64,000 nucleotides of DNA from a virus: the IMG/VR virus record IMGVR_UViG_3300042359_000621; one strand, given 5' to 3'. A program made the position numbers and the translations under genes. Under the pieces are notes generated by a model. The model did no database searches. It was given only the letters and a program-made list of their open reading frames with translations, and was not told where the DNA came from. Every line of letters begins with the position of its first letter. Within the stretch, counting starts at the first letter, position 1. Positions 179-60,415 of this stretch are shown one piece after another.

Positions 179-667
179 CTAATTCCCTGACTCAATAGAC
201 CAACTAGAATAAGCCTCGATATCGTAGAAGCGGTCGTCTATTAAGGTTTGATCCTCAATATCCCTATAGTTTTCTGCCATGATTTCAAACATCCGAGCAA
301 ACGGGTCAATGTCTAGGGAAGTTTTGCCGTCCGTCATCAGAACGTAGGAATGGGCATCAAGCCAGTTGGCAAGTTCTGGACTAATCCATCGGGCAACCTT
401 AACCGCCAGTAATGGATGTCCCCATGTTCCCTGCTCCCTATTGTCTGAAAATTTCCCTTTCACAACCTCTAAGAGTGATTCCTCAGATGTGAGGGAATTA
501 GACAGGGCATCCATTTCAGCCTTTGAGGATTTCAGTCGTAACCAGTTATCAAGTCTTGTGTTGTAGGCTTTGCACATTTGAGTCAGGTTCACATACCCAT
601 CTGACTCCCGAACAGAAATCTTAATCCCTTCAAACTGAAGTGGAACAATTTTGCTATTATGATTCAT
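179..667 (-). CDS. KilA-N domain DNA-binding protein
   Basis: N-terminal ..GYVNLTQMCKA.. and ..GTWGHPLLAVKVARWISPELANWL.. resemble the KilA-N signature. Confidence 0.7.
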   Translation of the reverse strand: MNHNSKIVPLQFEGIKISVRESDGYVNLTQMCKAYNTRLDNWLRLKSSKAEMDALSNSLTSEESLLEVVKGKFSDNREQGTWGHPLLAVKVARWISPELANWLDAHSYVLMTDGKTSLDIDPFARMFEIMAENYRDIEDQTLIDDRFYDIEAYSSWSIESGN

Positions 668-766
668 AGTTGACCTGCTGTATAGGTTGGCTCACGTCCC
701 CGAATGTTTCCGCATTGCGGGGACACTTATTATTATAACAATTTTATTAATAGAAATAGTCGATAT

Positions 767-30433: not shown

Positions 30434-30690
30434 AGTCAAGAATCAAGGTTTACCAATGTAGTTTGTTGGTAAATAGTTAACCAGTCTAAGCTCTTTACTG
30501 AGCTACGTTATTGGGAAGTGTTTAAGTTCATACCTTGGGATGCGTTGCCAGTTCCAAGCTCTATAACTAAGTGATTAAACAGATGTACAGCAATTAAGTC
30601 AGTGTCACTTAGATAGTACCGCCCAATAACATTGACGAGGCACACATTACCCGATTTATCGGAGGCTCGAAAGAGTTATTTTTAAATGTC
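30434..30690 (+). ncRNA. IscB-associated omega-RNA / HEARO-like structured RNA (boundaries approximate)
   Basis: ~250-nt non-coding stretch directly 5' of an IscB N-terminus. Long-range pairings: 30507-15/30622-30 (9 bp) and 30567-74/30605-12 (8 bp). Local hairpins: TTTACCAA/TTGGTAAA, CCGAT-tt-ATCGG, CTC-GAAA-GAG. Confidence 0.55.
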
Positions 30691-36562: not shown

Positions 36563-37255
36563 TTATTCCGGTTCGTAGGTTAAAACAATACCCATATCTT
36601 GACAATGAGACTCTACCAATAAAATAAAATCTGGACTCGCGCATCCAAAGAAGTGAATCCGTTTTTCATGCTCTGGATAATACTTTCCATAACAGAAAAC
36701 CTGTCCTATAGCTTCTTTCCATCGTTTCCAATCTTTGATCTCGATTAATTGAGTGTCGGTTAAAATGTCGATTCTCCCAGCTAATGTTGAGACTTCGAGC
36801 TTTGCATTGAGTAAAGTTTTTGCCAGTTTCTTCTGTATGATCTTCTCGACTTGATTAGGGTTTAATGTCTTTTTAATTCGAGGCTCTAACGATGTTGCAC
36901 GTTCTATCTTTGAGTTTTTTGTTAGTAATCTCATGGCGTCTCTTTTTCCCTCAGATGCAGCAAAAGATATTAAGACATCAAAATCTGACTGTGAAAGCGT
37001 CTGAGCGCACCGACCACCGCCATTAATACTTTCACATACTACAGGAATAAACTCGCCCGTATAACCCATTCTTTCTAATGTCTTCGAGGCTTTGCCAACC
37101 CTGCTAGTGATCTGAGTCAACCAGTTTTCCGCATACCCTAAAGCCAAACTCGCCCCAACCATCCCAACTCGGAACTCGCCATTGGGCATCATGTACCCAT
37201 CAACAGAAATTCCTTCTACATATTCGATAGTTGCCCGTTGTGATTTAATTGTCAT
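36563..37255 (-). CDS. Bro-N/KilA-like N-terminus plus PD-(D/E)XK nuclease (module A1)
   Basis: C-terminus ..GRIDILTDTQLIEIKDWKRWKEAIGQ.. (D..ExK); paralog of 59807..60415. Confidence 0.6.
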   Translation of the reverse strand: MTIKSQRATIEYVEGISVDGYMMPNGEFRVGMVGASLALGYAENWLTQITSRVGKASKTLERMGYTGEFIPVVCESINGGGRCAQTLSQSDFDVLISFAASEGKRDAMRLLTKNSKIERATSLEPRIKKTLNPNQVEKIIQKKLAKTLLNAKLEVSTLAGRIDILTDTQLIEIKDWKRWKEAIGQVFCYGKYYPEHEKRIHFFGCASPDFILLVESHCQDMGIVLTYEPE

Positions 37256-37284
37256 TGTGACTATTTCCTTAATTAATGGTTACG

Positions 37285-37334
37285 GCTCCTGGGTGCGACG
37301 AACACCGCGAGGAGCATTTCTATTATTAATTATA
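37285..37334 (-). promoter_or_regulatory. TGATATAAT promoter plus conserved leader hairpin (copy A)
   Basis: -10 at 37334..37329. Outer stem 37285-90/37310-15, inner 37292-95/37303-06. Covaries with copy B. Confidence 0.55.
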
Positions 37335-37502
37335 TCAATATTTTATTAGTTTGTCTGTTAATTAAGCCACGTCAAACAAACTTAATTGCTTAAATTCCGG
37401 TTGTTTTAACTCCATGATTTCTAACTCTGTTTCTGAATATTCCCTGGGTTGGGAGATGCGATCGTGTGATACAATATAATCAGATTATTGGGTAACAACA
37501 CA

Positions 37503-57440: not shown

Positions 57441-59672
57441 ATGGTCACAATTTCAAGTTATCAAAATCTCCTTCGCTTTGATGCTGCTCCTACGGAAGTG
57501 CAGATGAAACTTGGTATTTCTCAAGTTTTGTCGATGCCATTTGCCTACAACTCTCCGGTTATCGTTCTGGACTTTGAAGTAGGCAATAAAAACATCATCA
57601 AGGGACGGTTTAAGGATGCCATTAGATCCCGTGTTTTTGAGTTTGAGATTGGGGATTCTATCACGTTCAAGCCGTTCACCTGGAGGCGAACGGATAGCGA
57701 CGTTGACCCGATGGCGTGGGAAGACTTCTCTAAAGGGTATTGCTACCGATTCGATGCAGTTAAGACCGTCAGAAAGGAAAAACCTAAGTGTGGCAATACC
57801 TCCTATAACTGCGGCAAAGCCTGCATTGGCTTAAACAAGAATTGCAAATCAGATCCCCCCGATAAACCGTCCCAGGAGAAAGTCGATAAACTCAGAGCCG
57901 CAGCAGGGGAGTTTAAAGCTGTTCAGGGCGATCCAACCAAGAAGCAAGAGGATAATAAGTTAACGCCAAAACCACAGGAAGTTAAGGCGGTTAAGACCAA
58001 AACTGCTAAGGGCGCGATCGCTAAATCAGAAACACCACCAAAAACACCCAAGACAACTAGACCCAAGGTAGGGACAAAGCAGTATGACGAATGGCTAGAA
58101 ACCGAATCTCAAAAACTCAAGGGTAAAGATGGGGAATATGTAATTAAAACCCGTTCGGGGGATGAGACGGTCAAAGGAACCGTTTATGGCAATGGATTGG
58201 GGATTAATCCAAATAAAGGGTCTTTGTACAACACTCACAGCGTTACGCACATCGGCAGTGGCAGATCGTTGGGTGATTTTGATGATGAAGTTCAGGCTAA
58301 AAAGGCATTAGTTGAGTTGAACCGATCCGGCGTTAATTGGAGCGAACAAGACTTAACAAAAATTCCAGGGATAGAGAAGAAAATAGTCAAAGTTAAGGGC
58401 TTGATAGATAATGCCAAAGACTCGGACTTAAGGGTTAAACGGGATGCTAAAAGGAAGGTGATAGAGGAAAAACGAGCTAAAGACGATGCCAAAATTGAGG
58501 CTGGTATGCAAAGGTTTAGAGAGGAAGAAGCTAAGAAAAAACAACAGGCTGAAATAGACAGAAAAATACAAGAGGAAAAAAATAAGGTAGAGCGTGAAAA
58601 GCAAGTTGAGGCTATGAAAAAGATGGCAGAAGATCAAGCAAAAGTTTATCAAGATTATGAGATCAATAGAACAAATCAACTGATCGGAGAATTGAAATCA
58701 TCCTTTGATGTTAAGTCATTGGAGTCTGAAGTTAGCGTGCTGGAATCGAGGCTAAAGACGGAATCATCTCCCAAGGCAAAAAAAGAGTTAAACCAACGAT
58801 TAAATAATGCAAACATCAAACTAAAGGAGGTTAAAACATTTTTATCTCAGGACAAACTTGAAACCTATCCCGCTTTTTTGAAATCCAGAGTAAAGGGAAT
58901 GGCTAATACTGTTGGGATTGAAAAAACCAGGGAGATTTTACAGGAGCAAATTGACAATTACAAGAAACAAGTAAAGGAGGAGCCAAAGCAAAAAACAATA
59001 AAAGTTCAAGGGGAGCGATCGCAAGAACAAGAATCCCCTCTAATTCCGAAAGAAGAAATAGTTAAAGAGGCTCCTAAGCGAATTGGGGATGGAACCCAAA
59101 AAAGCTCCCCTCTTAATGCTCAGGAATACCACAAAATGATGGTTGAGAGAGGGAATAATATCTCAATAGAAGAAGCTGAGGAAACTGTTAAATCAATCGT
59201 GTCGTGGAAACTTAGAAACGATGCCATAAGAGGAGATCAGCAACAAGGAAAGCCCAATAAAGATGCAGATAACATTGATAACTTTATCAAAAACTCTACA
59301 CCTTATGAGGGAATGGTCGCTAGAGGGCTTAAGTTTTTCAGTAAAGAGGAAGCAGCAAACTTTATCAAAGGGGATGAGAATGGGATATTAAATAACCAGT
59401 CTGCTCATGCTTCATGGACTTCTGATTTTGATCAAGCTAAGAGGTTTGCTGATGTAGAGTCAAAAACAAATCCCTACTGGAAGGAATATTCTGAAAATCT
59501 TTATCCTGTGATTGTCCTTGCCAAAAATAAAACAGGTGTTCCAGCCCAAAATACAGGAGATGGATTACATAGTAACGAAGCCGAGGTTATTGTTTCAAAG
59601 AATACAAGGCATAAAGTTGTTAGGGTGATAGATAGAGATGGAATTATTTTAGTGGAAACCGAAGAAGTGTAA
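57441..59672 (+). CDS. family member 2: shared N-terminal module, K/E-rich coiled-coil middle, C-terminal ADP-ribosyltransferase
   Basis: R-S-E triad: ..GMVARG (R628), ..HASWTSD (S658-S661), ..SNEAEVIV (E713/E715). Confidence 0.7.
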   Translation: MVTISSYQNLLRFDAAPTEVQMKLGISQVLSMPFAYNSPVIVLDFEVGNKNIIKGRFKDAIRSRVFEFEIGDSITFKPFTWRRTDSDVDPMAWEDFSKGYCYRFDAVKTVRKEKPKCGNTSYNCGKACIGLNKNCKSDPPDKPSQEKVDKLRAAAGEFKAVQGDPTKKQEDNKLTPKPQEVKAVKTKTAKGAIAKSETPPKTPKTTRPKVGTKQYDEWLETESQKLKGKDGEYVIKTRSGDETVKGTVYGNGLGINPNKGSLYNTHSVTHIGSGRSLGDFDDEVQAKKALVELNRSGVNWSEQDLTKIPGIEKKIVKVKGLIDNAKDSDLRVKRDAKRKVIEEKRAKDDAKIEAGMQRFREEEAKKKQQAEIDRKIQEEKNKVEREKQVEAMKKMAEDQAKVYQDYEINRTNQLIGELKSSFDVKSLESEVSVLESRLKTESSPKAKKELNQRLNNANIKLKEVKTFLSQDKLETYPAFLKSRVKGMANTVGIEKTREILQEQIDNYKKQVKEEPKQKTIKVQGERSQEQESPLIPKEEIVKEAPKRIGDGTQKSSPLNAQEYHKMMVERGNNISIEEAEETVKSIVSWKLRNDAIRGDQQQGKPNKDADNIDNFIKNSTPYEGMVARGLKFFSKEEAANFIKGDENGILNNQSAHASWTSDFDQAKRFADVESKTNPYWKEYSENLYPVIVLAKNKTGVPAQNTGDGLHSNEAEVIVSKNTRHKVVRVIDRDGIILVETEEV

Positions 59673-59721: not shown

Positions 59722-59774
59722 TGTTATAATTAATAATAACAAACGCCTCTCGCGGTGCGCTAACACCCAGAGGC
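59722..59774 (+). promoter_or_regulatory. TGTTATAAT promoter plus conserved leader hairpin (copy B)
   Basis: -10 at 59725-30. Outer stem 59745-50/59769-74, inner 59754-57/59764-67. Confidence 0.55.
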
Positions 59775-59806
59775 AGTAAACCTAAAACTTAAAACAGAGG
59801 TTCACC

Positions 59807-60415
59807 ATGTCGGATATTGTAAGATCAATCCGTGCCGAATTGGAACTAGGCAACAGAAGTATTGACTGCTATCTATTCCCAGATGGGGAGAAACGGATCG
59901 GAATTGGTGGCGCGAGTATTGCCATCGGACGGAGTAAAGAGTATTTGGGTCGCTTATTGAAAAGCGAATCAGAGGATCTCGGAAAACTCAAAATCATGGG
60001 ATTCTGTGGAAAAATTGTCGAAACGGAGTTTCTGTTTGGGAGAGGATCTACTCGCTCCAAAACTATTTCTTTGGCTGATTTTGATATTCTGATGATGTTT
60101 TTTGTTGACTTGCGGATGAAAAAAGAAAAGAAAAATCCTGAAGGTATTGTTAGGGATAAGTTATTAGAACAGTCAGGGGGATCTAAAGAGGTTTCTACAT
60201 TGGCAGGAAAGATAGACATATTAACCCCATCGCAAATAATAGAAGTAAAACAGGTTAATGGATGGAAAGGGGCTTTAGGACAAGTTTTAGTCTATGGATA
60301 TTATTACCCGTCTCATCAGAAAAGGATTCATTTGTTTGGAGAGTGCCATAGTAGCTATCTCGATATTATCCAAAAACATTGTCAAGAATTTGATGTTATT
60401 GTTACATGGGAATAA
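59807..60415 (+). CDS. Bro-N/KilA-like N-terminus plus PD-(D/E)XK nuclease (module B1)
   Basis: ..GKIDILTPSQIIEVKQVNGWKGALGQ.. (D..ExK); paralog of 36563..37255. Confidence 0.6.
   Translation: MSDIVRSIRAELELGNRSIDCYLFPDGEKRIGIGGASIAIGRSKEYLGRLLKSESEDLGKLKIMGFCGKIVETEFLFGRGSTRSKTISLADFDILMMFFVDLRMKKEKKNPEGIVRDKLLEQSGGSKEVSTLAGKIDILTPSQIIEVKQVNGWKGALGQVLVYGYYYPSHQKRIHLFGECHSSYLDIIQKHCQEFDVIVTWE

Follow-up and report, generated by a model that had tools for sequence, protein, structure and literature searches.

A widespread hairpin cassette that may encode an antisense RNA ahead of selfish and lysogeny-control genes

Free-standing homing endonucleases and similar selfish genes need to be expressed at low levels and to leave their neighbours undisturbed. 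To our knowledge, the only well-studied solution to this problem is the hairpin of T-even phages that sequesters the ribosome-binding site (RBS). Selfish and lysogeny-control genes are also a class known for repression by cis-antisense RNA, as in the control of the IS10/Tn10 transposase by RNA-OUT/RNA-IN and of the antirepressor of phage P22 by the sar RNA.

Hairpins that sequester the RBS and contain an embedded late promoter precede the endonuclease genes I-TevI, I-TevII, I-TevIII, segB and mobE in T-even phages and phage Aeh1 (PMC2988022). Conserved 5′-UTR hairpins were also described before 15 of 16 GIY-YIG or Vsr-like endonuclease ORFs in a study of 'fractured genes' in marine metagenomes (Dassa et al. 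2009; PMC2677866). Ten of these hairpins carry a TATAAATA box, two conserved motifs pair in the stem, and the structures are read as sense-strand translational hairpins of free-standing endonucleases. An antisense RNA detected by experiment, CfrI, is tied to a homing-endonuclease gene in cyanophage S-PM2 (Millard et al. 2010, as cited in PMC12197685). CfrI lies between psbA and the endonuclease gene, which it links (PMC12197685, which also cites the P22 sar RNA). Finally, T4-type phages contain PeSLs, in which a terminator stem-loop is followed by an early promoter and which flank variable genes (PMC4122927).

Hairpin 1 in the window and among viral contigs

The window analysed here, a 64,000-nucleotide stretch of viral DNA, belongs to a phage related to Planktothrix phage PaV-LD. 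The original prediction described a hairpin, here called hairpin 1, ahead of two genes in the window. The two copies head the units that we call cassettes A and B:

37285-37315, minus strand: hairpin 1 of cassette A on the mRNA strand, a strand-neutral, 5′-proximal mRNA stem-loop
37285-37315, plus strand: opposite-strand copy of the same hairpin, the proposed terminator hairpin of an antisense RNA
37329-37357, minus strand: sense promoter of cassette A, with a −35-like box, a 17-nt spacer and TG + TATAAT (10 of 12 matches)
36563-37255, minus strand: gene A, 230 aa, with its N-terminal ~114 aa corresponding to phrog_32599
59722-59730, plus strand: sense extended −10 box of cassette B, TG-n-TATAAT, 14 nt before hairpin 1, as read from the sequence
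59745-59774, plus strand in the mRNA: hairpin 1 of cassette B, with a minus-strand copy that is the proposed terminator
59807-60415, plus strand: gene B, 202 aa, a paralog of gene A

The sequences of both hairpins agree letter for letter with the original prediction, and the adjacent outer-stem positions that differ between A and B are two compensatory pairs that leave pairing intact in each copy. In A and B alike, hairpin 1 consists of a 6-bp outer stem, a G-C pair between two single-C bulges, an inner stem of 4 to 5 bp and a loop of 6 to 7 nt, with folding energies of −15.6 kcal/mol for A and −14.4 kcal/mol for B (z ~ −3 relative to shuffled sequences). The core pattern occurs at only these two sites in the window, where the chance expectation is 0. 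A −10 box of the TGnTATAAT type is located 13 to 14 nt upstream of hairpin 1 in both copies, and the start codons of the paralogous genes lie 29 to 32 nt downstream. The predicted sense start of cassette A is 6 to 8 nt before hairpin 1. A two-hexamer promoter scan did not list the sense −10 box of cassette B.

When the whole window was searched with Rfam 15 at the gathering threshold, the only match was to HEARO and none fell at the hairpins. Permissive Rfam scans of sites A and B gave only chance snoRNA and MicA matches (E > 0.3). These searches assign hairpin 1 to no family, in agreement with the original statement that it could not be matched to a known motif. A tRNA and tmRNA search was also negative. 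The HEARO element (the omega-RNA of IscB) is full length, occupies 30435-30650 on the plus strand, and scores 126.9 bits compared with a gathering score of 83.

A sense-direction terminator of an upstream gene was rejected for hairpin 1, because copy A faces a divergent gene and the gene strand has no U run after the hairpin. A double-stranded operator for a dimeric regulator was rejected because the distance between half-sites ranges from 4 to 12 nt and changes in one arm are compensated in the other. Inspection of ~12 copies by eye revealed no consistent pairing for a pseudoknot between the loop and 3′ tail or for a preQ1-like fold.

Further instances of hairpin 1 were collected with four pattern scans of viral contigs and a script filter. 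Most were gathered with patterns that fix the core, so the sample is biased. Exact-core matches with all six outer pairs numbered 92, with a Shine-Dalgarno (SD) sequence and an ORF just downstream in 74, and exact-core matches with at most four outer pairs numbered 220, with 200 located inside open reading frames. On the basis of this bimodal distribution of pair counts, together with the covariation described below, a chance pattern and a relic of gene duplication were rejected. The credible matches comprise 71 hairpins in 70 loci with 22 distinct outer arms, and the start codon is found a median of 28 nt downstream of the hairpin.

The original prediction had let its case for a selected structure depend on covariation in a larger alignment, and covariation is present there: with 45 sequences, 97.8% of cells pair, a value reached by 0 of 500 shuffles, and double changes occur at all five variable pairs (92 cells). 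This larger sample of leaders confirms that the structure is under selection. A structure-only scan of the collected loci specified a 6-bp outer stem separated by CGC on the 5′ side and by C on the 3′ side from a 4-bp inner stem with its loop. It found 57 unique matches, compared with 0 to 2 when any one of 13 control sequences took the place of the internal loop. The matches show covariation of the inner stem as well, since at least seven alternatives to it occur in the same promoter and SD context. Only the asymmetric CGC/C internal loop stays invariant. Additional variants of hairpin 1 were seen in Rhizobium phage RHph_I1_18 and in one PaV-LD-like contig.

Hairpin 1 is strand-neutral, folding on either strand. 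The outer stems of 30 unique intergenic copies contain 172 Watson-Crick pairs, a single G·U pair and four A·C mismatches. RNAs that act from one strand usually hold far more wobble pairs, and a nearly pure Watson-Crick hairpin is expected if both strands must fold. Nearly every loop in the family begins with UU on one strand or the other; in A this is the mRNA strand and in B the antisense strand.

Carriers of the cassette and the genes it heads

PaV-LD has three copies of the motif, before ORF028L, ORF068R and ORF099R/100R ("anti-repressor"), and the third has yet another outer stem that is perfectly paired. PaV-LD-like genomes contain three or four canonical copies each, and dozens more copies were found in uncultured phages, cyanobacterial MAGs and Deinococcus genomes. 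The genes that follow the motif are mutually non-homologous. They encode HNH, SegE-type GIY-YIG, NUMOD3-bearing and I-TevI-like endonucleases, as well as a KilA-N/T5orf172 protein, Ant-like proteins, and phrog_32599 proteins with or without a nuclease tail. In four Deinococcus genomes (loci L366, L373, L385 and L391), the cassette precedes genes for ~320-aa tyrosine-integrase-like proteins, an identity confirmed with Pfam for one of the four.

Genes A and B are 36% identical. They match phrog_32599, a profile of 178 positions and unknown function, over the first ~110 residues only, and their C-terminal part is a nuclease-like tail (D...EIK), which in gene A is restriction-endonuclease-like. 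The whole profile is matched by relatives such as L039 and PaV-LD ORF068R. The original prediction placed the hairpin in front of nuclease modules, and this association does not hold up. The same cassette heads the whole-profile phrog_32599 paralogs of PaV-LD, which have no C-terminal extension, and it also heads an Ant-like gene, a Bro-like regulator gene at the left end of the window, the Deinococcus integrase genes, and many HNH and GIY-YIG genes. The motif accompanies selfish and lysogeny-control genes in general and not the nuclease modules of this window, and the Deinococcus copies take it past phage homing endonucleases, into the integrative elements of a distant phylum.

Some copies have no gene. 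In contig IMGVR_UViG_3300042908_001106 (L401), from a near relative of the window's phage, a relic of hairpin 1 at 1731-1772 on the minus strand has CGT in place of CGC. Neither a promoter nor a gene can be recognised with it, and an intact cassette is found 230 nt away. On the minus strand of contig IMGVR_UViG_3300044922_000828 (L199), the promoter and hairpin 1 are intact, the sequence diverges 10 nt past the hairpin, and no ORF follows; this locus is possibly an emptied cassette at the breakpoint of a deletion.

A second hairpin and a proposed antisense RNA

Hairpin 1 is only half of the element. A second hairpin, hairpin 2′, which is not part of the original prediction, adjoins it on the opposite strand. 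The corresponding features in the window, which include a third cassette, C, are:

37257-37283, plus strand: hairpin 2′ of cassette A, 9 bp including two G·U pairs
37241-37249, plus strand: antisense extended −10-like box of cassette A, TG-n-TTTAAT, in codons 3-5 of gene A, a sequence motif only
37254-37327, plus strand: predicted antisense RNA of cassette A, ~70 nt, with two adjacent hairpins and a U-rich tail at 37316-37327
59775-59806, minus strand: hairpin 2′ of cassette B, covering the complement of the gene B SD sequence
59816-59821, minus strand: antisense −10-like box of cassette B, TACAAT, in codons 4-5 of gene B
59733-59809, minus strand: predicted antisense RNA of cassette B, with a U-rich tail at 59733-59744
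665-745: cassette C, a third and diverged copy, heading the Bro-like regulator gene at 179-667 (minus strand; phrog_129)

In cassette C, hairpin 1 at 696-724 has a GC/C internal loop instead of CGC/C and scores 13.2 bits with the hairpin-1 model. The minus strand carries its sense TATAAT (732-737) and the plus strand its hairpin 2′ (668-692), and the antisense box reads TG-n-TATTAT. A clean terminator at ~768-799 precedes the cassette. The predicted antisense RNAs of A, B and C each contain two directly adjacent hairpins, and each folds more stably than the sense strand of the same stretch: −23.4 kcal/mol (z −3.7) compared with −16.4 kcal/mol (z −2.1) for A, −26.7 kcal/mol (z −3.4) compared with −19.3 kcal/mol for B, and −27.2 kcal/mol (z −4.6; 665-745, plus strand) compared with −19.2 kcal/mol (z −1.8) for C. 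A fold screen of all ORF starts in the window found no cassette beyond these three.

The same asymmetry is seen across the family. In all 33 unique leaders, the antisense strand gives the more stable fold for the segment from hairpin 1 to the start codon, by a mean of 4.35 kcal/mol (Wilcoxon p = 5e-7). The RBS is located 10 to 25 nt downstream of hairpin 1, where the sense strand folds with only 0 to −8 kcal/mol, always more weakly than the antisense strand. The helix of hairpin 2′ is mostly 8 to 9 bp long, and in the 33 leaders it includes 194 Watson-Crick and 57 G·U pairs, each of the latter becoming an A·C mismatch on the mRNA strand. An anti-SD sequence occupies the 5′ side of the hairpin 2′ loop in 21 of the 33 leaders, and in cassette A the loop (~37264-37270) is complementary to the SD sequence of gene A. 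Thus, a stable antisense structure displays the complement of the RBS, as is characteristic of cis-antisense regulators. In a first full-length alignment of the antisense strand, RNAalifold missed hairpin 2′ because MAFFT misaligned its variable spacer, and anchoring the alignment on the helix base recovered it. In the anchored alignment, the first pair of the helix is C-G in 12 leaders and G-C in nine. It is followed by U-A in 20 and then by a conserved G·U in 19 of 23, and the next two pairs covary.

Promoter-like boxes for the opposite strand are found within the first codons of the genes. In A, B and C, antisense −10-like boxes lie 3 to 9 nt from the complement of the start codon, and the PaV-LD and cyanobacterial copies carry similar boxes. 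Such boxes are present in 19 of 30 cassette genes and in 20 of 142 other ORFs from the same loci (Fisher p = 1e-7), an enrichment that is less than twofold over AT-matched control ORFs (63% versus 35%). No −35 element was found for these boxes, which persist across differing codons and gene families. In cassette A, the predicted antisense start coincides with the complement of the start codon.

In the T4-like class, the antisense box is a late-promoter sequence, and the facing late promoters mean that the cassette is bounded by a late-promoter inverted repeat. Unrelated ORFs in T4-like loci such as L131, L259, L266, L286 and L349, which encode GIY-YIG and zinc-finger/HNH proteins, start with Met-x-Ile-Tyr/Phe. 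These shared starts arise because the late-promoter box, read as its reverse complement, makes up the first codons. In two T4-like ORFs with longer N-termini, the box shifts along with the Ile-Tyr codons. A long-range pairing between promoter and ORF start in read-through transcripts, in the style of I-TevI, is possible in this class.

At the other end of the element, the 10 nt that follow hairpin 1 contain a mean of 5.8 U on the antisense strand compared with 3.0 on the sense strand, and at least five U in 32 of 35 copies compared with 2 of 35, a comparison that is confounded because the antisense tail, which is imperfect and interrupted, overlaps the A/T-rich sense promoter. A short U run is kept there also by G+C-rich phages. 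A simple consensus scan for terminators at sites A and B found no canonical terminator, and the two bulges of hairpin 1 are unusual for a Rho-independent terminator.

From this anatomy we propose a cassette of ~90 to 115 bp (~117 bp in A) in which two facing promoters ~80 bp apart would enclose the two hairpins. The gene-strand promoter, sigma-70-like here and a T4 late-promoter sequence in T4-like phages, would lie a few bases before hairpin 1 and produce an mRNA with, in order, hairpin 1, a largely unstructured SD region, and the start codon. Antisense transcription would begin at the complement of the start codon, directed by the box in codons 2-5. The antisense RNA would fold hairpin 2′ first, with the anti-SD displayed in its loop, and then the complement of hairpin 1 (hairpin 1′), and would end at the U-rich tract. 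Being fully complementary to the mRNA leader, it could pair through its anti-SD loop with the open SD region, probably with an additional kissing contact between the loops of hairpin 1 and hairpin 1′. Such pairing would keep ribosomes from binding and probably make the duplex a target of RNase III, so that expression of a selfish or potentially toxic gene would stay low. The stems and loops of A, B and C differ while the core is kept, which would make each antisense RNA specific for its own gene. We infer the antisense transcription, the termination at hairpin 1′ and the translational repression.

A cis-antisense RNA of ~70 nt with hairpin 1 as its terminator is the best reading of these data, and we favour it with modest confidence. 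The original prediction suggested an autoregulatory protein-binding site or a processing site in a 5′ leader. Its premises are borne out, in that the structure is selected, the covariation is real, and the upstream sense promoter places the hairpin in an mRNA leader. However, the anatomy is better accounted for by a cis-antisense RNA than by a site on the mRNA for an autoregulatory protein. Because hairpin 1 is strand-neutral, it may also have a role in the mRNA.

If the element acted solely on the sense strand, hairpin 1 could serve as a protein site, a processing site or a 5′ stabiliser, and the features of the opposite strand would follow incidentally from A/T-rich promoters and coding sequence. 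The promoter is located 4 to 14 nt upstream in most copies, which would put hairpin 1 at the very 5′ end of the mRNA, where its strand-neutral fold is compatible with such a role, and the invariant CGC/C beside freely covarying stems (57 matches versus 0 to 2 for the 13 controls) resembles a recognition site. However, hairpin 2′ folds on the antisense strand only, with its 57 G·U pairs, and this hairpin, its anti-SD loop and the asymmetry of the U-rich tail are then left unexplained. No protein is common to all of the carrier genes and phages, so any binding factor would have to come from the host and be present alike in cyanobacteria, in Deinococcus and in the hosts of T4-like phages. We consider a sense-strand role on its own to be unlikely.

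Two further explanations dispense with the antisense RNA as the functional product, and both appear highly improbable to us. In one, the hairpins act at the DNA level, as folded single strands or cruciforms, and help the cassette to recombine or move, comparable to integron attC sites or to shuffling by PeSLs. Portability among unrelated genes and hosts and the gene-less relic in L401 would be explained in this way, small promoter and stem-loop units can mediate shuffling (PMC4122927), and the nearly pure Watson-Crick hairpin 1 is compatible with folded single-stranded DNA, which also tolerates strand-specific G·T pairs. Against this, the element always sits between a promoter and an SD sequence, in one orientation and with a median of 28 nt to the start codon, the hairpin 2′ loop holds an anti-SD, the element has promoter-like boxes and a U-rich tail at its flanks, and no recombinase is common to the carriers. 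The other explanation is a one-way insulator, in which hairpin 1 on the antisense strand stops stray transcription toward the upstream neighbour and the antisense RNA is a by-product. Invading endonuclease genes must spare transcription of their neighbours (reviewed in PMC2988022), the U-rich tail is on the antisense side only, and the upstream neighbour of cassette B, at 57441-59672, is convergent with antisense transcription. However, an insulator has no need of hairpin 2′, with its conserved G·U pair and anti-SD loop, or of an antisense promoter-like box of its own that keeps a fixed distance to the start codon.

Within the antisense reading, the role of terminator does not account for the strict invariance of CGC/C, which points to a further partner or function. 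A broader proposal, which we put forward only tentatively, is that the motif defines a very widespread, previously undescribed family of self-contained brake cassettes with facing promoters, in which the mRNA leader and a ~70-nt antisense RNA have a strand-symmetric hairpin in common and CGC/C may be a dock for a universal factor or a kissing device, and that such cassettes may travel among unrelated selfish genes (for homing endonucleases, Bro/KilA/Ant proteins and integrases) in cyanobacterial phages, Deinococcus elements and T4-like phages.

Implications and comparison with known systems

If the proposal is correct, a single portable antisense cassette used by unrelated gene families, with different promoter types and in different host phyla, would solve in a general way the problem of controlling selfish genes. 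It would explain why unrelated endonucleases have the same few codons at their start, how a gene that has just been inserted comes with its own control, and why paralogous copies in one genome keep the core and change stems and loops, which would avoid cross-talk. The cassette could serve as a simple annotation marker for selfish genes and, in synthetic biology, as a compact and host-independent expression brake. For the window itself, three intergenic regions are re-read, from a "leader hairpin" to an "overlapping sense/antisense unit".

The leaders of T-even phages and Aeh1 resemble the cassette in being structured, in having a late promoter, and in restricting the expression of homing endonucleases. 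In contrast, the promoter of the cassette is upstream of the hairpin and not inside it, as it is in the I-TevI/mobE type, and hairpin 1 does not include the RBS. With promoter and RBS both outside hairpin 1, an RBS-sequestering hairpin of the I-TevI/mobE type with an embedded promoter was rejected as its identity. A further difference from the T-even type is that the RBS region of the cassette has only weak structure in the mRNA but folds strongly on the opposite strand. The hairpin of seg43(25) in Aeromonas phage 25 is closer to hairpin 1, being located just upstream of the RBS without sequestering it (PMC2988022).

Going by their published description, the hairpins that Dassa et al. (2009) found may be this motif or a relative of it. 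The element analysed here is one instance of a widespread antisense-type cassette that is uncharacterised as far as we could find. The present data add its form with a sigma-70 promoter in a cyanophage, its presence before non-nuclease genes, and its presence before the Deinococcus integrases.

PeSLs, too, are small regulatory units that recur beside variable genes, and they may contribute to the shuffling of these genes (PMC4122927). The cassette is not a PeSL, because its order is promoter and then hairpin and it has a second, facing promoter. CfrI of S-PM2 (PMC12197685) is a precedent in concept only: a search of S-PM2 with the hairpin-1 model gave no match, and CfrI was rejected as the same element.

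The closest parallels to the predicted cassette are in IS10 RNA-OUT and P22 sar. The cassette differs from both in having no sequence or Rfam kinship with them, in being portable, in its two adjacent hairpins, and in its invariant CGC/C. It would share with them facing promoters, a predicted antisense RNA of ~70 nt that covers the 5′ end of the mRNA, the RBS and the start codon, a selfish or lysogeny-control gene as the target, and the complementary sequence displayed in a hairpin loop.
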